Assembly (NCBI GenBank): GCA_043816125.1
Contig: JBDRIF010000045.1
Span: 1 to 48,886 of the forward strand
Reading direction: 5' to 3'
DNA length: 48,886 nucleotides
Source of the DNA: a bacterium
GTDB taxonomy: Bacteria > Margulisbacteria > WOR-1 > O2-12-FULL-45-9
The notes below the pieces were generated by a model that was not told the origin of the DNA, did not search any database, and worked only from the letters and a program-made list of their open reading frames with translations. The translations under genes were made by a program, and so were the position numbers. Of this stretch, positions 5,790 through 36,882 are shown in pieces (position 1 is the stretch's first letter; every line of letters begins with the position of its first letter).

Positions 5790-7423
5790 GTCGTTTCTTC
5801 TGGATAATTTAGACTGATCATGCCGTCTCTTCCAATGAGCCAAGCATTGTTGTAGTGTCCCGGGTTAAACAAGACAAGATCTATGCCGCTACTTGACCAT
5901 TCAAAACCGAGTTGGCGCATCTTCTTGATCAGTTCTCCTCTTGTTGTCTGATTTGTTTCTAGAGAAGATAGTGTTATTACAACAGCTTCGGGAATACCGG
6001 CTTTTTTGCGAGTTGTCGACCAGACAATTCCCTCTGGTGGAGTGGGGTATCTGTTACGCAAATCATAAACACTTTGTCCTATGACGATAAACTCTCCATG
6101 GAAGTTTAAGTAATACCGTGCATTTTCTCTCGATAAACCTGTTCCTGCGGAAATTTGATCTAGGGTCTGTTTGCCGTTGGTTGTCAGGAATTGCCAAATC
6201 CGGTTAAAACTTCCCTTAGATAATTTTGTCAGACAAAAACGATCCTCCTCAATAGTAACTCTTGGGTGATGGGCGAAGATCTCTCTCAGTTCGGTTTCCA
6301 GGACTGCTATTCCCAACTGAGTTCTTAACTGCGTTCGATAATCATTGAATGACCAGGAGCTTCTGCCGCTGGGGGAAGGTTGTGATGGATTCAAATCGAC
6401 TAATTGCTGATAATCAACCTCGGTTCGACAAAAAGCTGGATTAGCAATTTTTGCATTGCTGACATTAATGCCAGTCTCCAAGTTAATGACGGTTGCCTGA
6501 TCGGCATCAATCAAGATATGGTCTACAGCTCGTGGTGTGACTGTCATAATATCAATTTCTGTCGAGGCGATTCGGAGCGGGCCGAGAGTATCCCAGCAAA
6601 TTGCGATGAGAGGCCCTAAAAGAGGGGCTTCGTTTTCTGCCAACACCTGCAGACCGAGTAAGCTTTCTCTTAGTCCTCTGAGGGTGACTATCGGCGAGCT
6701 GGCTAGAGACCAGGAGAGAATGATTGATAATGTGCGCCACATCGGTAAGAGGTGTTCGTGGAGGAGAGAGCCCTTCAAAAACTGCATTTTTGAACTGTCA
6801 ATATTGGCGTGTAGTGACTGTCTGTTTTGTATGCCAAATTCAGTCATGATCTCTCTAGGTGTAAAGTAATGTCCGGGTTGCTGAAAACCATAGTACATTC
6901 CAATTATGGCTTTATCTCTTTCCGAGATATTTGGTGCTGTTTTCAATAAGCGAGTTACCCTCTCCAGAGTAACAAGTGAGATTTCTGCTGCTCTGTTAAT
7001 AGTAAATTCGCGTGCTCCGGGCAGCCCGAGTAACCCGGGGTCTCTTGTCAGGATTGCTTCGCCAACCACCAAACATCTCTCTTCGCCGCTTCTAAATCTA
7101 TTGGAGGCACGCGTGGCTAAACCAAAGGTGTTTAGGGTAGGGGAAATGTAAACTGTTTCGACAAGGGTCCCTCTTCTCCTGAGCTCTTTTATTACCGCTT
7201 CAGCAAAGGTTTTGGTCGGAAGCAATGAGGTAACCTGAGACGAACTTCTAACACTTGCATGCCTTTTCCTAGCTACTTTTATTGGTGTGACCGGAGGGAG
7301 GTCTACTACAGAGGAATGGTGTTGGACTACCCTTTTAACTTGTCGTGCTCGGGCTCTGGTTTGAGCGTTATCGTTGTCTCTTTTTGCCTGCCAGCAGCGG
7401 GCCATTCTTAATAATTCTGTCAT
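5786..7423 (-). CDS. hypothetical multi-HTH protein, paralog 1 (sigma-70 region-4-like HTH + HARE-HTH-like + C-terminal winged-helix-like)
   Basis: 545 aa. Aa ~165-212 ISERDKAIIGMYYGF..TPREIMTEFGI resembles sigma region 4. Aa ~404-460 end in HGEFIVIGQSVYDLRNRYP, close to the HARE-HTH terminal motif of RNAP delta (GRFLAL..TWGLRSWYP). Collinear paralog of 7439..8977. Its stop overlaps the asd stop (convergent). Confidence 0.6.
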   Translation of the reverse strand: MTELLRMARCWQAKRDNDNAQTRARARQVKRVVQHHSSVVDLPPVTPIKVARKRHASVRSSSQVTSLLPTKTFAEAVIKELRRRGTLVETVYISPTLNTFGLATRASNRFRSGEERCLVVGEAILTRDPGLLGLPGAREFTINRAAEISLVTLERVTRLLKTAPNISERDKAIIGMYYGFQQPGHYFTPREIMTEFGIQNRQSLHANIDSSKMQFLKGSLLHEHLLPMWRTLSIILSWSLASSPIVTLRGLRESLLGLQVLAENEAPLLGPLIAICWDTLGPLRIASTEIDIMTVTPRAVDHILIDADQATVINLETGINVSNAKIANPAFCRTEVDYQQLVDLNPSQPSPSGRSSWSFNDYRTQLRTQLGIAVLETELREIFAHHPRVTIEEDRFCLTKLSKGSFNRIWQFLTTNGKQTLDQISAGTGLSRENARYYLNFHGEFIVIGQSVYDLRNRYPTPPEGIVWSTTRKKAGIPEAVVITLSSLETNQTTRGELIKKMRQLGFEWSSSGIDLVLFNPGHYNNAWLIGRDGMISLNYPEETT

Positions 7424-7438
7424 ATTCTTTTCCTGTTA

Positions 7439-8977
7439 TTAAACATAATATTTCCCTCTGCCTGTCTCCATAATGTGTGCTTTAATATCGTCGTATCTAT
7501 GAAGGACATTTTGCACTGCTTTAAGCGACCATCGGAAACCGAGTGATAAAGTTGACTGATGTATCTCTCTGGCAGTTAATGGTCCGCTAGCTCTGACCAG
7601 TGCCACATAAACTGCCGGAAATGCAAAAGCGGCACTTTGAATTTCAGGAACTGTTACGTATCTAAAAACGGAGGCGAACTTACTGCGGAGGTTATACCAG
7701 CCGTTTCCGACCAGGATGAATTCTTCTTTCTCGGCTTTTAGCAAGTTGGCTGTGGTCCCTTCTGTTAAGCCGACTGAGCGGGCTATAACTTCGTAATGTA
7801 ATGGACCTTCAAAATCAAGTAACTGTCTGACCCGGTCGAAATTGACCCAAATCATTTTAACAGTCCAAAAAGTATCTCCTTCGACTACAAAAGAGGGATG
7901 ATAATTAAAAAGCGAGCGGAGCGCTTCGATGGAAATGTTTAATTCGAGCCTCTCTGAGACGACTTTTTGGAAAGGTTTCAATTGCCAGTAGGCCCGTCGT
8001 TCCGGTTTCTCTCTGACTTCAAAATAGAGATCAATAATTCTTTGGTAGTCAGATGATTCGCGGCAAAAGGCGACAGCTTCTGCTCTGACATTCTCCTCCG
8101 CCTCCCCATCGAAAAGGCTAAGCAGTTTTACATCTCCCCCTCTAAGGAGCTCAAAATTAACGGCTTCGCCGGGTAAGGTTGGCAGGTCAATGTGACTCAT
8201 TGAGGCCCGAAATGGTCTGAGCCAATCCCAGATTAGGCCGAGCAGAGGAATAATCTGATTTTCGTTCTCCTCTGTAATAAGAGAAAAACTTTTTAAGTCT
8301 CTAATTAAATAATCTAAGGGATAAAGAATCTCTGTGGCCAAATGCCAACTAATGATGGTAGAAATAATTTCCCAGGTTGGGAGTAGGTAGTCGAACTTTA
8401 GCGGACTTCTGGATATTTCTGACTTGGTTCTGGCATCGACTCGTGCGGCTTTTGATGTCCCTATTTCCTGGCCAATAGCTGTAAAGGAGAGGGCTTTTCC
8501 GGAGTCATGAAAGCCGGTTCGTTTTTTGGCAACCTCAATACGTAGTTCTGTTTCACGTAGGCCCAATCGCTCAATAAGTTCGGTTATTCTGGACCAGTTC
8601 GAGATAGGAGATCGGCCGACATTGTTCGAATTATATCTGGCTGGCCAGAAAAGGGCTCTTTCGGTGCTTTGAGTTTGAATTATCCTTGGGCGAGTCCTCT
8701 CCATTATTCCCGGGGTTGGGATCAGTTCGTTAACATATATTGTGTCAACCTCTCTTCCTGTTTCAGTTAGGTAAGCTTCCATTTTTTCGATGAAAGCTTC
8801 TAACGTTATTGGTAAACGATAATTTAGCGAGGTCTTTAGTAACACATCTCTGCCATGAATATTAATTCGCCTTGGCAGCTTAGTTGGAGCGGATGCCGCG
8901 GATTGAGGATTAGCAACCCTTCTCGCCGCCCAGCATTGAGCCATGTTTCTAAGTGAGCTAACTTCTGTGGGTCTCAT
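7439..8977 (-). CDS. hypothetical multi-HTH protein, paralog 2
   Basis: 512 aa. Shares with 5786..7423 the motifs A(R/Q)CW.A.R at the N-terminus, LLP.W..(L/I)S.I(L/I)SW.LA, PLLG.....WD.L.P.R, FCR...DYQ..(V/I)DL, (F)..HP......(D)(R/T)F and EF(I)(V/L)(I/V)G..(V/W)Y.LR. Region-4-like LSFTAIGQEIGTSKAARVDARTKSEI. Confidence 0.6.
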   Translation of the reverse strand: MRPTEVSSLRNMAQCWAARRVANPQSAASAPTKLPRRINIHGRDVLLKTSLNYRLPITLEAFIEKMEAYLTETGREVDTIYVNELIPTPGIMERTRPRIIQTQSTERALFWPARYNSNNVGRSPISNWSRITELIERLGLRETELRIEVAKKRTGFHDSGKALSFTAIGQEIGTSKAARVDARTKSEISRSPLKFDYLLPTWEIISTIISWHLATEILYPLDYLIRDLKSFSLITEENENQIIPLLGLIWDWLRPFRASMSHIDLPTLPGEAVNFELLRGGDVKLLSLFDGEAEENVRAEAVAFCRESSDYQRIIDLYFEVREKPERRAYWQLKPFQKVVSERLELNISIEALRSLFNYHPSFVVEGDTFWTVKMIWVNFDRVRQLLDFEGPLHYEVIARSVGLTEGTTANLLKAEKEEFILVGNGWYNLRSKFASVFRYVTVPEIQSAAFAFPAVYVALVRASGPLTAREIHQSTLSLGFRWSLKAVQNVLHRYDDIKAHIMETGRGKYYV

Positions 8978-9019
8978 GGTTCTGTATCGTCTCTACTCGT
9001 GGAAAATTTCAAGCAATAC

Positions 9020-9028
9020 TGATATAAT
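9020..9028 (+). promoter_or_regulatory. extended -10 box TGATATAAT, 6 nt upstream of the GTG start of the methyltransferase operon
   Basis: tgatataat at 9020..9028, spacer tcaaaa, GTG at 9035. No SD. Confidence 0.5.
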
Positions 9029-9034
9029 TCAAAA

Positions 9035-9679
9035 GTGCACAACCAAGGACAAAGAGATTATTTTGAAGGGTTATTGGCCAAGCACGGAAATTCATATCTG
9101 GCTCTCGATTGGAACAGTCCCGAGAGTCAAAAACTCCGCTACATAATTTTGAGTCAGATCTTGCAGTTTTCCGCCAAATCAGTCGATCTTTCTTTGCTTG
9201 ATGTCGGTTGCGGCTTTGGGGACTTGTTCGATTTCTTACGTAGTCAAAAATTGTTAGCCAGTCATAATATTAGTTATCTTGGTTACGATATTTCCGACAA
9301 AATATTGGCCGTGGCCAAAAAGAACTATCCTGATGCCAAATTTGAACATAAAGATCTTCTGTTGGAAACGGATGTTCCCCATGTTGATTTTATCTTTGCT
9401 TCTGGAATATTTAACATTAGGGTCTTACCCAAAGATGAACATCATAATTTTGTTAAGGAAATGTTGCAGCGGATGTACGAGTTGGCAAATTATGGGGTGG
9501 CTGTTAATTTTTTAAGCGAAAACGGTGTTTCTATCTCAGATATCGATGATTTGAACAGCGGCCGTTATTTTTGTTTTAAGGTTGAGGACTTGGCCGAATT
9601 CAGCCGGGCTTTGACCAATCGTTTTATCATAAGACATGATTATCATCAGGGCGATTTTACGCTATACTTATTAAAATGA
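9035..9679 (+). CDS. class I SAM-dependent methyltransferase
   Basis: 214 aa; motif I LLDVGCGFGDLFDFL, post-I YLGYDIS, motif II/III FIFASGIF. GTG start. ATGA overlap with the next gene. Confidence 0.8.
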   Translation: MHNQGQRDYFEGLLAKHGNSYLALDWNSPESQKLRYIILSQILQFSAKSVDLSLLDVGCGFGDLFDFLRSQKLLASHNISYLGYDISDKILAVAKKNYPDAKFEHKDLLLETDVPHVDFIFASGIFNIRVLPKDEHHNFVKEMLQRMYELANYGVAVNFLSENGVSISDIDDLNSGRYFCFKVEDLAEFSRALTNRFIIRHDYHQGDFTLYLLK

Positions 9680-28752: not shown

Positions 28753-30102
28753 CTAATATAAATCAAACTTGACGACAACTCTGGACGTGAATTCATAGCC
28801 TGCCTGGATATGATGGATGTCTGCCCGATCAATGTCCAGGCCGCTAACCGTCAAATCTGCCGGTGTTGCTGTCAGGTAATAAAATGCTTTTCCCGTTGCA
28901 GTATCTCCTTCTCGATGCAGACTGCTGCCGCTTGAGAAGAAAGAGATAAATGGTTTTTGTGACTCGGATGATGGGAAATTAATTGCGGCAAGAACTTCGG
29001 CTGCGGAAGCCTCGGCAGTCGCACCATTGACAAGCTTTTGCCATTTGTATTGGACGGTTTCAATTTTACCTGTCGATTCGTTGCTGACCAGATGGAAGAC
29101 AGGGTAAATAATGTTGTTATCTGCTCCCATTCTCATCACTTCAGAAGCTTTGAAGTTGTTTATTGTATAAGTTGTCGATTCGATTACTACTGAATATGTC
29201 CCATCAGGGGCTATTTCCGGTGTGGAGACAGTAGGGAAAAAGAGGGTAAAGCCACTTCCGCTTATGGCGTCAGTTGTGGTTGTTTGAGTCGTTGTTCCGC
29301 CTAAGGCTGAGGGAGGGGTTAGTGTTGCCGTGGTTCCGGTATCTCTGACATCCCCACTCCCCAGAGCGGTAAAGTATATCTGGAGAAAACTAGGGATAGG
29401 GGTATAATCGGAATTATATCCACTGATCATGGCGTCAACTTCTCCGGTCGGAGGGGCGTCATTATCAAACATGCCGATGTAAGTTTGAAACATATAATTT
29501 TTGTCTTCGGTAAAATCAAAAACTCCGTTTCCATCAATGTCAATATTTGTTAATGAGGCTAAGGAATTATCAAGCTCTCCATACAAAGTGGCGACACTGG
29601 TATCCATATCCATTTCGGTAATTAGACTGGTGATATCTATTGCAGGGGTCGCTTCAAGGCTGGCAGTGTCTATTTCAATTGTGCCCAGGGCAGTGGCGGA
29701 GTCTGCCGGGGCGATAATGGGGAGAGAGTCCCAATCATAATCAGAGTTTTGTAAATATCCAAGAAGTGTTATCGTTGTTCCTGTTTTGTTATAAAAGCCT
29801 AAAACATATGGTTGTCCAGATGTAACCGTTAGCACAAAACTCCCGTCAGCTTCTGGAGTGACCAGGGTCTTTTCATTGTCTGCTCCGATCGCAACAATGT
29901 CAGTAACTGTATCTGTTGCCGAAGCCATTATGCCGCTGGTTGTTATCGTACCGACTGAGCCTGAAACAGAGTAATTGCCTGAAGTTGTTGTCCCGCTATT
30001 CGTTCCTGTTAATGAACCGCAACCGATCATCATCATCCCCATACCAAAACCTAGCGCGATCAAACCGACCCCAACAGCCAACATTAAATTTTCTTTTTTC
30101 AT
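28753..30102 (-). CDS. surface lipoprotein, Thr/Ser-rich N-terminal linker (architecture resembles 11789..13381)
   Basis: ORF 28753..30111 starts at GTG. Preferred start is ATG 30102 (MKKENLMLAVGVGLIALGFGMGMMMIGCGS lipobox) behind GAGGTG. ADGSFVLTVTSGQPYVLGF CarboxypepD_reg-like strand pattern. Confidence 0.6.
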   Translation of the reverse strand: MKKENLMLAVGVGLIALGFGMGMMMIGCGSLTGTNSGTTTSGNYSVSGSVGTITTSGIMASATDTVTDIVAIGADNEKTLVTPEADGSFVLTVTSGQPYVLGFYNKTGTTITLLGYLQNSDYDWDSLPIIAPADSATALGTIEIDTASLEATPAIDITSLITEMDMDTSVATLYGELDNSLASLTNIDIDGNGVFDFTEDKNYMFQTYIGMFDNDAPPTGEVDAMISGYNSDYTPIPSFLQIYFTALGSGDVRDTGTTATLTPPSALGGTTTQTTTTDAISGSGFTLFFPTVSTPEIAPDGTYSVVIESTTYTINNFKASEVMRMGADNNIIYPVFHLVSNESTGKIETVQYKWQKLVNGATAEASAAEVLAAINFPSSESQKPFISFFSSGSSLHREGDTATGKAFYYLTATPADLTVSGLDIDRADIHHIQAGYEFTSRVVVKFDLY

Positions 30103-30174
30103 GTTTAACACCTCAATAGAATAATACTCCAGTGAATTTCTAAGTCAAGTGAAATTAATTCAAATTGTATTGGA

Positions 30175-30186: not shown

Positions 30187-31392
30187 ATGACAAAGATCGG
30201 CGGATATAAACCTCCGGGTGTCGGTTGGACTCCTAGCGGGGTAACTCATGGGAAAAAGCCGGGGCAAAAACCTCCAGCCAAACCGAAAGTCCCACCGCAA
30301 AGGGCGACGACGATTGATGTCGGTTTGCCTGTTACACATATCAGTGCAATGTCTGGCGGCGTGATTGCTGCTGTTCATTCTCCCGAAAGATTTTTGCGCG
30401 CATATGATGCGGCAGGCCAAATGCTGTGGGGAGAGGGAATTAGGCTTTATTCGAGGAGCCAACCGGAAAGAGTCCAGCAAATTCTCCAGGCCGGTGATTA
30501 TACCTGGGTTACTTCCCGTGATATTCATGACGGTGATTGTGTGATGAGGATCATCGAAAATAGAGCCGGCCATCTTGTTTATGAAGACTTGTTTGTAGCC
30601 GAAGAGCTGGCGCCGCATTTTACCTTGATCCCCCGACAGGGGCGGGTTTTAAAACTGGGGATCGACAGTCGAGTGACTCTTCACGATTATCAAGGAAACA
30701 AGATTGCGGAAATCCTGGAGCCCAATCTTGACGGCCCGCTAGGGGCTTTATCGAACGGAGGGGATAAGTTCTTTTTTTCTTTTGAGACAAGAGGCGGGTC
30801 CCGTTATGTGATCGGGTATGATAGCTATGGCGGGCAAGTTACCGCCGCGGTTAGGTTTGATGACAAATTTGGCAAACCGTGCCAATCCCTTGTTGACGAG
30901 CAGAATAACCAACTGTTTGTTGCTACCGATAATGGATATTTGTTTGTAATTGATATTACTTCCAGTGAATGTCGAGAGATCTCTTATCCGTATGCCCGAA
31001 ATGGGGCTTTGGCAATTACGTTGATAGATGGTCAGCTCTATGCTGTTATTGAAAATGATTATCATGCCAAGTTAGTGGCTTATAATGCTAAAACTCATCA
31101 GGAAGCCTGGCGTTTCCCCAGTATGGGAACGATCGAAGGGTATTCTTTACCTCTTGGTTATTACTATGATGGTCAGCGAAATTTAATTATTACCTGTCGT
31201 GATGGCCTGATGCATGGTTTAAACCCTGTCGATGGACTAATCCTGGGTTTTGGTAATGAGAAAATCGCAGCCTATACTTCATTCCGACCAGTTCAGATTG
31301 CGGGAGATCTTTTTGCGGTCGAAGTCAACGCGCCGGGGAAGAGGCTGGATGAAAAACCGTCGCAGACATTAGCCGTTTACAAGTGGGGATAG
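30187..31392 (+). CDS. PQQ/BamB-like beta-propeller repeat protein with Pro/Lys-rich N-terminus
   Basis: 401 aa; repeated motifs such as AYDAAGQMLWGEG, LFVATDNGYLFVIDITS, LVAYNAKTHQEAWRF and CRDGLMHGLNPVDG resemble PQQ-like propeller blades. No obvious signal peptide. Confidence 0.5.
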   Translation: MTKIGGYKPPGVGWTPSGVTHGKKPGQKPPAKPKVPPQRATTIDVGLPVTHISAMSGGVIAAVHSPERFLRAYDAAGQMLWGEGIRLYSRSQPERVQQILQAGDYTWVTSRDIHDGDCVMRIIENRAGHLVYEDLFVAEELAPHFTLIPRQGRVLKLGIDSRVTLHDYQGNKIAEILEPNLDGPLGALSNGGDKFFFSFETRGGSRYVIGYDSYGGQVTAAVRFDDKFGKPCQSLVDEQNNQLFVATDNGYLFVIDITSSECREISYPYARNGALAITLIDGQLYAVIENDYHAKLVAYNAKTHQEAWRFPSMGTIEGYSLPLGYYYDGQRNLIITCRDGLMHGLNPVDGLILGFGNEKIAAYTSFRPVQIAGDLFAVEVNAPGKRLDEKPSQTLAVYKWG

Positions 31393-31411: not shown

Positions 31412-31897
31412 GTGATCAAAAATGTGTTGATATTTGTCCTCTGTTTGTTTTTTATTTCTTCTTCTTACGCCACTTCAATCAAATATTTCCCCGGTATCAA
31501 GTTTCAATCTTCTGCCTATGGTATCTGGTATGACAAAGGTAATATTGAACTTTTTCTCTCTTCAACCAAAACTCCGAATGTCTATCTTTTTGGTGCGCAT
31601 AAGAAGCACAAGGTGAATGGTTGGTTGACCCTATTGACCGGACTTAGCGGGCAGAAAGGGCCGAACGAAACGCCCCTTACGATTGGACTTGGCGCTCAGG
31701 GGGATTGGGATTTTTTTGGAATGCAGATCAAAGCTCCGGTTTTGTTCAGTTATTACCGCAATTCAGCTATGACGATCGATTATGGCCTTGAAATTCCTTA
31801 CCGAGCCTGGCTTTTAGGCTTTCGAGGGATTTACTGGCTAATTAATAACCAAACAGGAGTCAATGAGTTGTACTGGCAGGTAGGTATTGATTTATGA
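31412..31897 (+). CDS. small secreted, beta-rich (OMP-like) hypothetical protein
   Basis: 161 aa; signal peptide IKNVLIFVLCLFFISSSYA. Alternating hydrophobic pattern with Gly/aromatic-rich strands. GTG start. Confidence 0.5.
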   Translation: MIKNVLIFVLCLFFISSSYATSIKYFPGIKFQSSAYGIWYDKGNIELFLSSTKTPNVYLFGAHKKHKVNGWLTLLTGLSGQKGPNETPLTIGLGAQGDWDFFGMQIKAPVLFSYYRNSAMTIDYGLEIPYRAWLLGFRGIYWLINNQTGVNELYWQVGIDL

Positions 31898-33144
31898 AGA
31901 AGGTCTTTTTAGTTGTCAGTTGTTTGTTGTTAGTTGTTGGTTTGTCAAATGGTTGCGGCGAAATGCGTCTGCCGTATAATTACAACTCGACGGTCGATGC
32001 CGAGTTCACTTATTTCCCCGTCGACTTGGCAAAACTATTTTGGGCGGATAATCCGGATTATCAGGCCGAATATCTGATTAACCTAAATACTAATGGTCCA
32101 TTCTTAAGCCCGTTTGCCATCCATACCGAAGGGGATCACAATGACGGCTATGGAAAATGGTATCTCCGCTCGTGGGACCGGTCGTTGAAAGTCTATATGC
32201 CGGTGCAAGGGACTATCTTGCCAAAAAATATTACGAATACATTAAACAGAGTAACTACTTATGAAGGAGATGAGGTTTGTGTCGATACCACTGTTGATTT
32301 TGTGATCAATGAACATGTCACTTTGCGTTTTGGTCATTTGGAACTTCTCAAATCTATTCAAGATGACCTAGACAATAGTGAAGATGGCTATTTAACTTTG
32401 CCGGCCGGGACCCATGTCGGGTATATATTGTCATTAGCCTACAGTGGTGAGGCGACTACCGGATCGCTCGATTTTCAGGTCTCTGATGATCGGGTCAATC
32501 AGGGGGTTGCTTACGATCCGGAGTATCACGCAAATCAATGGAGCTTGCCGCTAAACTATTTTACTTCTGATCTACAGACAGAAATTGAAACCTATTACGA
32601 TATTTTGTACTCTCGATTGGCAGAGATCGGCCGCTCTCCCGAGTCTAAGCTGGATAGTGCGTTAAATATTCATATCGGTAACAGCCCCTGGGGTGTTTGG
32701 TATTATGAAGAAGGGGATCTGGTGACAGCCGAAGGACATTATGATTGGGGGATGTCTGTAATCACCATGCTAAAACATCCGGAAAAAACTAATGAAGAAA
32801 CTTTTATATATGACCTTAGTATTTCGACTATGGAAGTTCCTGTCCGTTCTGATCTGGTCGGATTGTTTAATGCCAATAACGCGGAGACCGCGCCGGACAA
32901 ATATACTTTTCTGGAATCGGCAGTCTGGAGTCTCTATCTGGAAAGTGGGACCACAAATGAAGCAGGGGTCTTTAGAATGGAAGCTCCCCTTGGTACTCAT
33001 TACATGAAGTTTGAATTTCTCGAAGAGAGTTGTTCTGTTTGTCCCTGGGATGATAAGCTTAGAATAGAGTTCTTTGAGACATCTGCCGAAGCGAGTGGGG
33101 CGTTTGTGGATCCTTTAATCTATGGGAGAAATCCGAGTGAATAA
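31894..33144 (+). CDS. hypothetical lipoprotein
   Basis: 416 aa; MKKVFLVVSCLLLVVGLSNGCGE lipobox. ATGA overlap with the previous gene. The segment VTLRFGHLELL...LPAGTHVGYI vaguely recalls the M23/LytM barrel, but I saw no HxH metal site. Confidence 0.55.
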   Translation: MKKVFLVVSCLLLVVGLSNGCGEMRLPYNYNSTVDAEFTYFPVDLAKLFWADNPDYQAEYLINLNTNGPFLSPFAIHTEGDHNDGYGKWYLRSWDRSLKVYMPVQGTILPKNITNTLNRVTTYEGDEVCVDTTVDFVINEHVTLRFGHLELLKSIQDDLDNSEDGYLTLPAGTHVGYILSLAYSGEATTGSLDFQVSDDRVNQGVAYDPEYHANQWSLPLNYFTSDLQTEIETYYDILYSRLAEIGRSPESKLDSALNIHIGNSPWGVWYYEEGDLVTAEGHYDWGMSVITMLKHPEKTNEETFIYDLSISTMEVPVRSDLVGLFNANNAETAPDKYTFLESAVWSLYLESGTTNEAGVFRMEAPLGTHYMKFEFLEESCSVCPWDDKLRIEFFETSAEASGAFVDPLIYGRNPSE

Positions 33145-33439
33145 GAAAATTGTTGTATTATTAATGATCTGTTTGTTGAATGGCCCGGCATTTTGTGAAA
33201 CAGCAACACCAGAAGCCCAACCCCAACCCGAACACAATTTCTGGCAGGAGTTTGATATTACTTTCTGGCAAGGACTGCCCTGGATCACGATCTGGACGCA
33301 TTTTGCGGAAAGGCAGATCCAGGCTCAGCAAAATCCCGGCCAGCCGGCGAACTGGACGGTTATTTTGTCTGCTTCCACTGTTTTATCGGCGATCAATGCT
33401 TATCAGCACTCGAGAAGAGTTGCGGAGAATAGGGAATAG
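33122..33439 (+). CDS. small secreted hypothetical protein
   Basis: 105 aa from ATG 33122. The alternative GTG 33137 (MNKKIVVLLMICLLNGPAFC) sits behind GGGAGA and gives a cleaner signal peptide. Confidence 0.5.
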   Translation: MGEIRVNKKIVVLLMICLLNGPAFCETATPEAQPQPEHNFWQEFDITFWQGLPWITIWTHFAERQIQAQQNPGQPANWTVILSASTVLSAINAYQHSRRVAENRE

Positions 33440-33442
33440 GGG

Positions 33443-33832
33443 ATGAGAGAACAGGGAATTGTCAGCAAAATTCTTTCCCCTCTTCTGGTTGAAGTCTCTT
33501 TTCAAAGATCAGCCGCCTGCGAAAAATGCAACCTTTGTCATGGTCTGGATGAAAATAATGTTGGAGTAGAGGCGGTTAATGAGGTTGGAGCCAAGGTTGG
33601 AGATAAAGTAGAAATTGATATCCCTTCGCAGGAAGTTGTCAAAGGTTCAATCGTCATTTTTGTTTTGCCGCTCCTTTTATTAATTATTGGCTATTTAATA
33701 GGCAACTATTATTTTAGCGAAAGTTACGCGATTTTACTGGGGTTCATTTTTTTTGTCGGGAGTTTTTGGCTGGTTAGGTGGTATGACCGGAAATCCGTTT
33801 TACGGGCCATGATCATAAAAGTCTTCTCCTGA
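33443..33832 (+). CDS. rseC: RseC/MucC-family (SoxR-reducing system) membrane protein
   Basis: 129 aa; GIVSKILSPLLVEVSFQRSAACEKCNLCHG N-terminal Cys motif followed by two TM helices. Classical neighbour of rnf operons. Confidence 0.75.
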   Translation: MREQGIVSKILSPLLVEVSFQRSAACEKCNLCHGLDENNVGVEAVNEVGAKVGDKVEIDIPSQEVVKGSIVIFVLPLLLLIIGYLIGNYYFSESYAILLGFIFFVGSFWLVRWYDRKSVLRAMIIKVFS

Positions 33833-33932
33833 TTGAAATTTCCTTCAACACGCACGCGCGCAAGGCAGCAAATATGCCGTGGCTCCCCAAGCTGCGCAGC
33901 CGTCTTATCAGAAATTGCATGTAAGATGAAAT

Positions 33933-33960
33933 TTGCTTGTTTTCCTGTCGATGTTAATGT
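33933..33960 (+). promoter_or_regulatory. putative promoter of the repeat-gene array: TTGCTT-N16-(TGt)TAATGT, followed by GAGGTG SD
   Basis: TTGCTT 33933..33938, TAATGT 33955..33960 preceded by TGT, SD 33962..33967, ATG 33976. Confidence 0.4.
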
Positions 33961-33975
33961 TGAGGTGAATCATCA

Positions 33976-34227
33976 ATGAGGCCACAATTGCCCTGGATCC
34001 CAATCAAGGATTTGGATAATGAAAAAATAATTGCAGAAATTGCAGATAATTTGAACAAGATGCTGAATAAAGCCTGGGAGGAAAAAGAAGATAAGAGTAA
34101 AAATGAGCTTGAATATGAAGGGGTGACTTTCTTTAGGAGAAAATTGGGAGACCGACAAATCTGGGCGACTGATAAAGAGAACTTTTTAGCTGTTGCCAAT
34201 ATTTTGGGAGAAATAAATGAGTGTTAG
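33976..34227 (+). CDS. repeat-family protein, one module (divergent N-terminal half)
   Basis: 83 aa; ...LNKAWEEKEDKSKNELEYEGVTFFRRKLGDRQIWATDKENFLAVANILGEINEC. Its stop lies inside ATGAGTGTTAG, which also starts the next ORF. Confidence 0.65.
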   Translation: MRPQLPWIPIKDLDNEKIIAEIADNLNKMLNKAWEEKEDKSKNELEYEGVTFFRRKLGDRQIWATDKENFLAVANILGEINEC

Positions 34228-35104
34228 AACTGCATTAACTAGGCGCTTACCTGTTACAGGAAAGTGGACAAGGCCAACTTTTGCTGTTCCCATAATCAAC
34301 AGAGCAAGGGAAATGGGCGTGACCCAAAATGATCCAACCTTTGGTTTTATCGGGGGCGGACAGCCACTTAACGCTAGGTTTCTTAACGAACAGTTGAACA
34401 AGGCCTGGGAAGAGAAAGAGGATAAGAGTGCCAATGAGCTTGAATATAATGGCGTTATCTTCTTTAGAAGAAAATCAGGGTCACGTCACATCTGGGCTAC
34501 AGACAAGGAGAATGTAGAGGCAGTTGCCAAAATACTACAGCAAGGATATTTCCCTTTTGAAATCTCCCCTCTGGCTGATCATGAAATGGGCGTGACCCAA
34601 AATGATCCAATCTTTGGTTTTATCGGAGGTAGACAGCAAAATAATGCTAATTTTCTTAAAAAACTGTTGAACAAGGCCTGGGAGGAGAAAGCGGATAAGA
34701 GTACCAATGAGCTTGAATATAATGGCGTTATCTTCTTTAGAAGAAAAGCCGGGCCACGTCCCATCTGGGCTACAGACAAGAAGAATGTAGAGGCAGTTGC
34801 CAAAATACTACAGCAAGGATATTTCCCTTTTGAAATCTCCCCTCTGGCTGATCATGAAATGGGCGTGACCGTAAATGATCCAACCTTTGGTTTTATCGGA
34901 GGTAGACAGCAAAATAACTCCAAGTCTCTTAACGAACAGTTGAACAAGGCCTGGGAAGAGAAAGAGGATAAGAGTGCCAATGAGCTTGAATATAATGGCG
35001 TTATCTTCTTTAGAAGAAAATCAGGGTCAAACTACATCTGGGCGACTGATAAAGAGAACTTTTTAGCTGTTGCTAATATTTTGGGAGAAATAAATGAGTG
35101 TTAG
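34217..35104 (+). CDS. repeat-family protein, three tandem modules in one polypeptide
   Basis: 295 aa; 32-aa leader MSVRTALTRRLPVTGKWTRPTFAVPIINRARE, then modules starting MGVT at 34313, 34586 and 34859 (period 273 nt). Each reads MGVT.NDP.FGFIGG.Q..N...L...LNKAWEEK.DKS.NELEYNGVIFFRRK.G...IWATDK.N..AVA.IL. Confidence 0.7.
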   Translation: MSVRTALTRRLPVTGKWTRPTFAVPIINRAREMGVTQNDPTFGFIGGGQPLNARFLNEQLNKAWEEKEDKSANELEYNGVIFFRRKSGSRHIWATDKENVEAVAKILQQGYFPFEISPLADHEMGVTQNDPIFGFIGGRQQNNANFLKKLLNKAWEEKADKSTNELEYNGVIFFRRKAGPRPIWATDKKNVEAVAKILQQGYFPFEISPLADHEMGVTVNDPTFGFIGGRQQNNSKSLNEQLNKAWEEKEDKSANELEYNGVIFFRRKSGSNYIWATDKENFLAVANILGEINEC

Positions 35105-35453
35105 AACTGCATTAACTAGGCGCTTACCTGTTACAGGAAATTGGACAAGGCCAACTTTTGCTGTTCCCATAATCAACAGAGCAAGGGAAATGGGCGTGAC
35201 CAGAAATGATCCAACCTTTGGTTTTATCGGAGGCGGACAGCAACTTAACGCTAAGTTTCTTAAAAACCAGTTGAACAAGGTCTGGGAAGAGAAAGCGGAT
35301 AAGAGTACCAATGAACTTGAATATAATGGCGTTATCTTCTTTAGAAGAAAATCGGGCCTGCGTCACATCTGGGCTACAGACAAGGAGAATGTAGCGGCAG
35401 TTGCTGGAATTTTAGGAAAAAGCATAAAAGAAAAGTATAGAGATTCGTTATAA
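35094..35453 (+). CDS. repeat-family protein, one module
   Basis: 119 aa; same 32-aa leader as 34217 (one substitution) plus one module. Same ATGAGTGTTAG junction with the preceding ORF. Confidence 0.7.
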   Translation: MSVRTALTRRLPVTGNWTRPTFAVPIINRAREMGVTRNDPTFGFIGGGQQLNAKFLKNQLNKVWEEKADKSTNELEYNGVIFFRRKSGLRHIWATDKENVAAVAGILGKSIKEKYRDSL

Positions 35454-35542
35454 TGATTGATAGAATCAAAATCAGACAGAAATGCTCTCTTTAGGGCCGA
35501 TAGCTAAAAGTCAAGGATAATATTTTCTGTTTCTTTGTATTA

Positions 35543-35551
35543 TGATATAAT
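35543..35551 (+). promoter_or_regulatory. extended -10 box TGATATAAT upstream of rnfC (17 nt to the ATG, no SD)
   Basis: tgatataat at 35543..35551, then gacccggttgctttttt, ATG at 35569. Confidence 0.5.
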
Positions 35552-35568
35552 GACCCGGTTGCTTTTTT

Positions 35569-36882
35569 ATGAAAACTTTTAAACAAGGGATCCATCCTGC
35601 TTACAACAAGCGGGAGACACAGGACAGACAGATTGTCGAGGCTGCTCTTCCTAATAAAGTTATTATTCCGCTGCACCAGCATACCGGCGCGGTCTGCGAG
35701 CCTTTGGTTAAAGTCGGCGATGAGGTTGTCGAAGGGCAAAAGATTGGTGAGTCCGACAAATTTATTTCTGCCTCTGTTCATGCTTCAATCTCCGGAAAAG
35801 TAACCAAGATAGATAAGTTTCCGCATCCGTGCGGGGTTAATGTGTTGAGTGTGGTGATAGAAGCGGCCGCTCATCTCGATACGCCGCTTCGCGCCTACTC
35901 GATGAGCGGGCTTGACGCGGAACAGATTCGTTCTGTTGTCAAAGAAGCAGGCATTGTTGGGCTTGGCGGGGCGGCATTCCCAACTCATGTAAAGTTGTCT
36001 CCTCCAAAAGATAAAGTAATTGATACTATTATTATTAATGGTTGTGAATGTGAACCGTTTATTACCGCTGATCATAGAATAATGTTGGAAATGACCAAGG
36101 AGGTCGTTTATGGCGCCAAGGCAGTGGCCAAAGCTTGCGGGGCCAAGCGTATTCTGGTTGGAGTTGAAGATAATAAGGCCGATGCTATTGCCAAACTACG
36201 CGCCGCGATCCGGACCCAGCCGCTGGAAGTTGTCGATCAATTTGATGTTATTCGTTTGGAAACCAAATATCCTCAGGGCGGAGAAAAAATGTTGATCAAA
36301 GCGATGCTTAATCGTGAGGTCCCTTCCCGCGGTCTGCCTTTAGATGTCGGTGTGGTGGTTGTTAATGTCGGGACCTGTGTGGCACTGGCCGAAGCGATAC
36401 AGCTGGGCCGGCCTTTAACCAAACGAGTTGTTACTGTTACCGGATCGGGGATCAAAGAGCCGAAAAATCTGTTGGTCCGGATCGGGACCTCTTTTAATGA
36501 TGTAGTGGCGCAGTGCGGTGGATTAGCGGATGGGGCGCGCAAGATCATTGCCGGTGGTCCGATGATGGGGGTGGCGCAAGTTGATCTGGAAGTGCCGATT
36601 GTCAAAGCGACCAGTTGTATCCTTGTTTTGACTGAAAAAGAAATTGCTCAAGAACTGGAATTCCCCTGCTGTAAATGTTCACGTTGTGTCGACCATTGCC
36701 CCATGTACCTTGTGCCGACCAAAATAGTCGCCTATGCGCAAAATAGTAAATTGAGTGAATTTGAAGAATGGGGGGGCGGCGATTGTATTGAATGTGGCTG
36801 TTGTGCCTATAATTGCCCGGCCAAAATTCCTATGGTTCAGTGGATTAAATTAGGAAAACTGAAAGCGAGAAATTTAAAATGA
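35569..36882 (+). CDS. rnfC: Rnf electron-transport complex subunit C
   Basis: 437 aa; GIVGLGGAAFPTHVKL, IINGCECEPFITADHR, two 4Fe-4S motifs (CCKCSRCVDHCP, CIECGCCAYNCP). Confidence 0.92.
   Translation: MKTFKQGIHPAYNKRETQDRQIVEAALPNKVIIPLHQHTGAVCEPLVKVGDEVVEGQKIGESDKFISASVHASISGKVTKIDKFPHPCGVNVLSVVIEAAAHLDTPLRAYSMSGLDAEQIRSVVKEAGIVGLGGAAFPTHVKLSPPKDKVIDTIIINGCECEPFITADHRIMLEMTKEVVYGAKAVAKACGAKRILVGVEDNKADAIAKLRAAIRTQPLEVVDQFDVIRLETKYPQGGEKMLIKAMLNREVPSRGLPLDVGVVVVNVGTCVALAEAIQLGRPLTKRVVTVTGSGIKEPKNLLVRIGTSFNDVVAQCGGLADGARKIIAGGPMMGVAQVDLEVPIVKATSCILVLTEKEIAQELEFPCCKCSRCVDHCPMYLVPTKIVAYAQNSKLSEFEEWGGGDCIECGCCAYNCPAKIPMVQWIKLGKLKARNLK
35867..35909. repeat. GC-rich hairpin repeat element, copy B, embedded in frame in rnfC
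   Basis: ccgctcatctcgatacgccgcttcgcgcctactcgatgagcgg; 9-bp terminal stem ccgctcatc/gatgagcgg. Translated as AAHLDTPLRAYSMSG in the linker before the GIVGLGGA domain. Confidence 0.75.

Follow-up and report, generated by a model that had tools for sequence, protein, structure and literature searches.

Here we describe a tandem array of small protein modules, encoded at positions 33,976 to 35,453 of a 48,886-nucleotide (nt) stretch of DNA (hereafter, the window) from a bacterium of the Margulisbacteria lineage WOR-1 (assembly GCA_043816125.1, contig JBDRIF010000045.1). The explanation that we favour, and to which we give roughly an even chance, is that the locus encodes three free-standing proteins of a new repeat family, modular and probably DNA-binding. 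The module would be a modular ligand-recognition unit, with DNA as its likeliest ligand. We read it in this way because relatives of the module are fused to DNA motors and nucleases, because in some of these fusions it is placed much like the target-recognition domain (TRD) of the restriction enzyme SauUSI, because it carries a basic charge, and because patches of high variability are set in a conserved scaffold.

The locus contains three overlapping open reading frames (ORFs), annotated by NCBI as the hypothetical proteins ABIE84_02305, ABIE84_02310 and ABIE84_02315. These host five modules, M1 to M5:

33976..34227, + strand: ORF1, 83 amino acids (aa), isoelectric point (pI) 4.85; one divergent module, M1; the C-terminus reads GEINEC and stop
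34024-34224, + strand: M1 of ORF1, as matched by the hidden Markov model (HMM) of the family; a module with an N-terminal truncation
34217..35104, + strand: ORF2, 295 aa; a basic 32-aa leader (34217-34312), then three in-frame modules
34313-34585, 34586-34858 and 34859-35101, + strand: M2, M3 and M4 of ORF2, joined by the linker QQGYFPFEISPLADHE
35094..35453, + strand: ORF3, 119 aa, pI 10.4; a basic 32-aa leader (35094-35189), then M5 (35190-35450)

Modules that start with MGVT do so at 34313, 34586, 34859 and 35190, a spacing of 273, 273 and 331 nt; that is, the period is 273 nt in frame and 331 nt across each stop/restart junction. Tandem Repeats Finder describes the in-frame part as 2.7 copies of a repeat of period 273, with 90% matches and a score of 1258. 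An initial annotation of the window had proposed three overlapping ORFs with one, three and one modules, and an exact 273-nt period for those in frame. The ORF calls and the family HMM bear out the first of these claims, the MGVT starts and Tandem Repeats Finder the second. The modules had also been called five near-identical copies. Five is the right number, as the family HMM finds exactly five in a six-frame translation and zero elsewhere on the 48.9-kb contig, but M1 is truncated and divergent. It has no MGVT..FGFIGG segment, and its HMM alignment begins only at column 19.

The first line of evidence comes from the relatives of the module. An exhaustive search of 1.84 billion representative proteins, with the five window modules as the profile, matched 30 proteins at E ≤ 1e-3, including 18 at E ≤ 1e-10 and two ORFs of the window itself; this gives about 28 relatives. 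The matches P0029 (fn3-rich) and P0031 (BamB-like) are probable false positives, which a rebuilt family HMM did not recover. By this HMM the relatives carry 2-10 tandem modules, with a period of 82-92 aa, within single polypeptides. The window modules share the F/R/W core of the family, the tandem arrangement and the period, and score 58-81 bits. The named sources are mostly Candidatus Margulisiibacteriota or Saganbacteria, with one protein from the Omnitrophota and one from the Bdellovibrionales. Word-indexed homology searches with the window proteins returned only these proteins themselves, their contig is the only source of all three (cluster size 1), and no close relatives were found in scans of JGI metagenome contigs and IMG/VR. 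On this evidence from sequence, the module appears to define a previously undescribed, rare and lineage-restricted family of repeat domains.

The domain architectures of the relatives link the module with enzymes that act on DNA. In P0003 (five modules) and P0016 (four) the array lies C-terminal to an SF2 helicase, whose nearest matches are SauUSI (7clg, E = 3e-24) and models of type IV restriction enzymes. In P0015 (six modules) and P0028 (five) it lies immediately N-terminal to an SNF2 motor, and P0028 additionally carries GGDEF and PHP domains. In P0018 three modules precede a DEAD-like motor domain. P0014 has five modules, a C-terminal domain that it shares with other relatives, and then an MBL domain that matches ComEC (E = 1e-37 to 1e-39). 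Not all relatives are fused to an enzyme: P0005, P0008, P0012, P0023 and P0027 consist of modules only, and P0012 is complete on a 13-kb contig. The genes of the relatives are solitary, found amid housekeeping genes, and have no conserved partner or toxin.

The commonest architecture, seen in seven proteins, is a basic leader, 3-7 modules and a conserved C-terminal domain of about 230 aa. This domain (alignment A3) occurs in P0009, P0010, P0011, P0014, P0017, P0019, P0026 and P0030; examples are encoded at about 8890-9580 of locus L047 and about 7396-8118 of locus L041. Its sequence shows the motifs FDSxEER...YG...Q(V)...D(F/Y)...EHHP and, further on, YD(L/I)RR...R(T)R...W P. These motifs had raised the hunch of a nuclease of the PD-(D/E)xK/Vsr type, which found no support, as Pfam and a comparison of profiles with the PDB gave only spurious matches to alphaRep proteins.

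Two further observations concern the genes of these relatives. P0015 (L046, 3324-8465) and P0025 have an N-terminal region of about 190 aa in common (61% identity). Hydrophobic segments in this region of P0025, together with a start that resembles a signal peptide, suggest that the module array is carried by a membrane-anchored protein; P0015 has the SNF2 motor as well. Beside the gene for P0016 (L039/L040, 8933-11303), a Fic/DUF4172 gene lies between two fragments of MTHFR (PF02219), of 72-91 aa and 293 aa, and looks to have been inserted into MTHFR.

The second line of evidence is the module itself. An AlphaFold2 model, built with an alignment of 60 module sequences, has a mean predicted local distance difference test score (pLDDT) of 87.4 and a predicted template modelling (TM) score of 0.71. 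In view of this pLDDT, the module is predicted to be a compact folded domain of about 82-91 aa, with a short β-strand, a long α-helix, a three-stranded antiparallel sheet, a further α-helix and a linker strand. The elements of the model are a short N-terminal strand, H17-34, E42-45, E48-55, E58-63, H65-74 and a low-confidence linker with a strand residue. A single-sequence AlphaFold run on ORF3 reached a pLDDT of 45.

Searches of Pfam-A, NCBIfam, PHROGs and PADLOC gave no match at the cut-off for ORF1-3 or for single modules, and the best matches below the cut-off were mutually unrelated. When 60 diverse modules of the family were scanned singly against Pfam, no Pfam family was matched by more than two of them. 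Module profiles found only chance matches to designed repeats among PDB sequences. Foldseek gave no significant match in the PDB (best E = 0.71, and a TM-score of at most 0.36 among the best 50 of 233 hits) or in BFVD (best E = 0.2). The profile and structure searches that had been proposed for the module thus gave no confident match, in agreement with the earlier impression that it belongs to no recognized family.

Conservation within the module is uneven. The best-conserved positions are L28, F50, R53 and W61 in M2 numbering (HMM columns 28, 46, 49 and 57). At these columns identity between the modules of one protein is at least 0.85, while it is at most 0.2 at columns 5-6, 16, 18-19 and 53-54. 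The columns that are hypervariable within proteins (5-6, 16-19 and 53-55) form three patches, located just past strand 1, in the N-terminal half of helix 1 and in the β2-β3 turn. The patches were delimited in other proteins and only then transferred to the codons of the window, where pN/pS is 1.5 in the patches, a value from few codons that is no proof of positive selection, and 0.28 in the remaining codons. Family-wide, the modules are mostly basic, with a typical pI of 9-10 and a net charge of +3 to +7, and some are acidic.

How does this compare with known systems? SauUSI, a type IV restriction enzyme (PDB 7CLG), has a coupler and a DNA target-recognition domain C-terminal to its motor (PMC7913695). 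The array of P0003 and P0016 follows a SauUSI-like helicase core at just this place. A similar likeness to the accessory domains of SF2 motors is seen in P0015 and P0028, where the array directly precedes the SNF2 motor. There are also clear differences, as the module has no likeness in sequence or fold to the SRA-like TRD, it is tandemly repeated 4-10 times whereas the TRD is a single domain, and P0003 and P0016 have no PLD nuclease, while the window proteins have no motor of any kind.

The arrays also resemble TALE, PUF and PPR proteins in their tandem units, a conserved scaffold with few hypervariable positions per repeat, fusion to or action with nucleic-acid enzymes, and concerted evolution by recombination. 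This is a likeness of functional class and not of homology. The modules are of 82-91 aa and mixed α/β, whereas the repeats of those proteins are of 33-36 aa and helical, and the analogy is one of logic.

Two known domains were considered for the module, and neither is supported. The HARP domain (PF07443, PDB 4O66; found in SMARCAL1, UvsW and XPB) is a small domain, at times present in tandem, that stands beside motors of the SNF2/XPB type. A published description gives it five strands in a sheet that packs on two helices (PMC4666394), and the predicted element count of the module resembles this description. Furthermore, the C-terminal motif of the module, (V/I)W(A/T)F...D(L/V)..VA..L, resembles tWdF..sDY..L of HARP. 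Nonetheless, this lead, the one concrete lead to a homologue, is unsupported in sequence. Only one of 60 modules matched PF07443, at the chance level of E = 0.086; hhalign of module alignment A2 with the 4O66 fragment gave a probability of 2.9% over 14 columns, in a comparison of low power where the HARP side was a single sequence; and a homology search seeded with the HARP fragment had no matches. In structure, 4O66 was absent among the best 50 of 233 Foldseek hits in the PDB, and HARP stays no more than a lead. The double-stranded RNA-binding domain (dsRBD) has the same order of core elements (alpha-beta-beta-beta-alpha) as the module model, but the module adds strands at its N-terminus and in the linker. 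No dsRBD was matched by Foldseek (best E = 0.7 and TM-scores of at most 0.36 among the best 50 of 233 hits, where the only complex containing a dsRBD is 6v5b_C, with a TM-score of 0.17), nor did Pfam dsrm match.

Several points weigh against a role of these proteins in DNA recognition. No enzymatic partner of the window proteins is encoded on this contig, and ORF1 is acidic as well as truncated. The searches of Pfam, the PDB and Foldseek gave no significant likeness, in sequence or fold, to known nucleic-acid-binding domains. The variable patches could be merely unconstrained loops. Finally, the fusion partners argue for DNA, yet protein or RNA ligands remain compatible with them. The strongest competitor is a repeat for protein-protein interaction or scaffolding, comparable with ankyrin, TPR or Sel1, whose arrays would recruit partners to helicases and nucleases and would make the window proteins adaptors. 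A conserved core with variable surface patches in tandem arrays is equally a hallmark of protein-binding repeats, which would also accommodate the acidic ORF1 and acidic modules and the want of a match to a known nucleic-acid-binding fold. Yet the known fusion partners of confirmed members almost all act on DNA (the SauUSI-like, SNF2 and DEAD-like motors, the ComEC-type MBL domain and PHP, with GGDEF in P0028 besides), the modules are predominantly basic, and the arrays of P0003 and P0016 sit where a target-recognition domain would be. On balance we hold a protein-binding function to be unlikely, if still the best of the alternatives to nucleic-acid recognition.

DNA recognition also has a bolder form. 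With its three patches, each repeat of about 85-90 aa might recognize a portion of a DNA or RNA target, which would make the module the unit of new programmable nucleic-acid-recognition arrays. Enzyme-fused arrays would then direct helicases, SNF2 motors and nucleases, and free arrays, diversified by gene conversion, would bind alone or regulate the enzyme-fused paralogues. To this form we attach a low probability.

The three ORFs of the window are joined by two junctions with the same layout:

34206..34227, + strand: junction 1; GGGAG (34206-34210), an in-frame TAA, the ATG of ORF2 (34217) and the TAG of ORF1 (34225-34227)
35083..35104, + strand: junction 2; GGGAG (35083-35087), an in-frame TAA, the ATG of ORF3 (35094) and the TAG of ORF2 (35102-35104)

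At both junctions GGGAG lies six nt 5′ of the ATG, the in-frame TAA abuts this ATG, and the TAG of the upstream ORF is eight nt past it; GEINEC and its stop overlap with ATGAGTGTTAG by 11 nt. The stop/restart junction of the initial annotation, with this overlap and a following 32-aa leader, is therefore present at two near-identical sites. The layout would fit translational coupling. A junction adds 58 nt (331 minus 273), which shifts the frame by +1. Programmed frameshifting was rejected as an explanation, given the in-frame TAA before each ATG, no slippery site, and no signal of RNA structure at the junction (z = 0.43).

The leaders are informative in their own right. The two are identical at 31 of 32 residues, and the leader MSVRTALTRRLPVTGKWTRPTFAVPIINRARE is basic (pI 12). 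In relatives the N-terminal leaders are rich in Arg, Lys and Pro, with a linker-like segment at their end. As basic leaders with a linker-like tail are typical of the family, the leaders that begin with MSVRT are likely to be genuine N-termini. Moreover, the leader tail FAVPIINRARE-MGVT parallels the in-frame linker FEISPLADHE-MGVT, which suggests that the strand before MGVT is structurally part of the module that follows. Split or restarted module genes may also occur elsewhere: on a 1-kb JGI contig (L042) a partial module frame (3-185) runs directly, in the same frame, into the gene for P0027 (141-989).

Could the three ORFs simply be the decaying, functionless remains of one five-module gene, possibly once fused to an enzyme, that was broken by a copied frameshifting junction? 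The +1 shift from the 58 extra nt, the N-terminal truncation of M1 and the missing enzymatic domain are what such decay would leave behind, and the dN/dS between paralogues, given below, mostly reflects the history before inactivation and would be compatible with a recent break. However, both junctions have a well-placed GGGAG, ATG and stop overlap, the 32-aa leaders look like the genuine, basic N-termini with which intact members of the family begin, and all module reading frames are free of internal stops and frameshifts. Module-only proteins also recur in the family, as in P0012, P0008, P0023 and P0027. We therefore consider decay improbable, somewhat more so than a protein-binding repeat.

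The next matter is how the three ORFs came to lie where they do. The array is located in the following setting:

33443..33832, + strand: rseC (RseC_MucC, E = 1e-27), the upstream flank
33833..35568, + strand: the rseC-rnfC interval of 1.7 kb, which holds the module block
33962-33968, + strand: Shine-Dalgarno sequence GAGGTGA, 7 nt 5′ of the ORF1 ATG, read from the sequence
35543..35551, + strand: TGATATAAT, an extended -10-like box upstream of rnfC
35569..36882, + strand: rnfC, first gene of the rnfCDGEAB operon, the downstream flank

The RnfC of the window is 68-69% identical to RnfC of Margulisiibacteriota-type metagenome-assembled genomes, so that the window agrees with the lineage in which the family is mainly found. 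In its two closest relatives the gap between rseC and rnfC is just 21 nt (L038) and 46 nt (L003), and no modules were found within 6 kb on either side of rnfC. L038 also has two genes upstream of rseC in common with the window. Modules were absent from all 36 rnfC loci that we compared. Since rseC abuts rnfC in L038 and L003 and no module occurs in the 36 loci, the 1.7-kb block is a lineage-specific insertion, as expected from the earlier remark that it interrupts a common neighbourhood. It separates rseC from rnfC, which otherwise adjoin closely at this energy-conservation operon, and may alter rnf expression.

The origin of the block was sought in mobile elements. No transposon-like ends and no convincing direct or inverted repeats flank the insertion, there were no tblastn matches to relatives in phage and plasmid collections and none in IMG/VR, and an origin as cargo of a mobile element, phage or plasmid is not supported. 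The composition of the block has no strong anomaly, with a GC content near that of the upstream flank. A 22-nt direct repeat of 82% identity, between the spacer 5′ of ORF1 (33909-33930) and the 5′ part of ORF1 (34034-34055), may be left over from the insertion event or from an earlier copy of the module.

The block had been credited with a promoter and a Shine-Dalgarno sequence of its own. The GAGGTGA is clear, but a consensus scan found no + strand σ70-like promoter 5′ of ORF1, and no + strand terminator within the block. Likewise, rnfC was said to have its own box, and TGATATAAT is indeed present; as L003, which has no insertion, carries the similar TGCTATAAT at the equivalent place before rnfC, this box is not specific to the insertion. 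The sole + strand σ70-like match in the region (35438-35466; TAGAGA, 17 nt, TAGAAT, with TG) begins in the last codons of ORF3 and extends 13 nt past its stop, about 100 nt 5′ of rnfC, and is distinct from the TGATATAAT box. No Rfam families or tRNAs were found in the window.

Some features of the upstream flank are worth recording. A 416-aa lipoprotein-like ORF and a 105-aa ORF, neither with a Pfam match, precede rseC-rnf in both the window (31894-33439) and L038 (4041-5603), and L003 has only the small one. This pair may be a conserved companion of the Margulisbacteria rnf cluster. Further upstream, the ORFs at 28753-30111 (- strand, 452 aa), 30187-31392 (+ strand, 401 aa) and 31412-31897 (+ strand, 161 aa) have no Pfam match at E ≤ 1e-5.

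The history of the array is evident in a higher-order repeat that spans both junctions:

34159..34527, + strand: copy A; tail of M1, junction, leader and head of M2
35036..35404, + strand: copy B; tail of M4, junction, leader and head of M5

The copies differ at 20 of 369 nt (5.4%, or 94.6% identity), matching the few percent divergence first noted for this repeat. Only two mismatches fall in the first 154 nt (98.7% identity), where the module tail, junction and leader lie, and one stretch of 54 nt is 100% identical between copies. Identity across the array is a mosaic: 98% between the tails of M1 and M4, 98% between the tails of M2 and M3, 100% between the middles of M2 and M4, and 98.7% between the two junctions. 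This pattern indicates gene conversion or unequal exchange. As a group, the window modules have 77% identity among themselves, and no outside module exceeds 51% identity to them; the closest ones are in the helicase protein P0003.

Under this local similarity lies an older history. The synonymous divergence (dS) among M2-M5 is 0.12-0.53, and it is saturated against M1. The ratio of nonsynonymous to synonymous divergence (dN/dS) is 0.22-0.38 in five of the six M2-M5 pairs; the value of 0.81 for M2-M3 rests on few changes. From these values, the modules are old coding copies that purifying selection has maintained, with local conversion superimposed. The initial annotation had taken the repeat as a sign of recent duplication or ongoing gene conversion. 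Duplication and gene conversion are supported by the mosaic identity and the near-identical junctions, but a purely young, dynamic insertion is at odds with the dS values and the mostly low dN/dS.

Such repeats raise the concern that the copy number or order of the modules is an artefact of a collapsed, expanded or chimeric assembly. The two 154-nt stretches and the 54 identical nt could mislead a short-read assembler, and this contig is, as stated, the only source of the proteins. In most of the array, however, the copies are 5-25% different, enough for an assembler to tell them apart, and every reading frame is intact. We think an artefact very unlikely, and the module and its family stay real even if the copy number is wrong.

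The least probable explanation, and one that we give hardly any weight, is that of the initial annotation, an array of immunity or antitoxin paralogues, or a contingency locus, in which each ORF neutralizes a toxin and copy number varies in the population: polymorphic-toxin immunity arrays are likewise tandem, recombining small ORFs of one domain, and the module is in no curated family, but in relatives the domain is repeated in cis (2-10 per polypeptide) and attached to enzymes, with the genes standing alone among housekeeping genes, there is no immunity-family or significant PADLOC match and no phage or plasmid relative, and the neighbours are rseC and rnfCDGEAB, with no toxin, nuclease or ATPase adjacent, as had been noted from the start.

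Returning to modular DNA recognition, we propose the following course of events. Relatives would string modules into arrays on DNA motors and nucleases, where these serve as the targeting or substrate-recognition part. A gene set of modules only would have entered the rseC-rnfC spacer in this genome, and the array would then have been expanded and homogenized by unequal recombination and gene conversion. We infer that the three ORFs are probably read through from the rseC/rnf transcript, and that ORF2 and ORF3 are probably translated by coupling at the two overlaps of a Shine-Dalgarno-preceded ATG with a stop. The free products may, for instance, bind DNA in their own right, or they may work with, or compete against, paralogues that are fused to enzymes.

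The host belongs to a candidate phylum for which we know of no cultured model and of few characterized proteins. Even with a mundane function, the module is a cleanly defined new domain family that is fit for deposition in Pfam. If DNA recognition is borne out, a structurally unmatched domain would join the few modular repeat systems through which enzymes are directed to nucleic acids. Furthermore, this would give a role to large proteins that are at present unannotated, namely the SauUSI-like and SNF2 helicase fusions, the ComEC-type nuclease fusion and the proteins with the 230-aa C-terminal domain.

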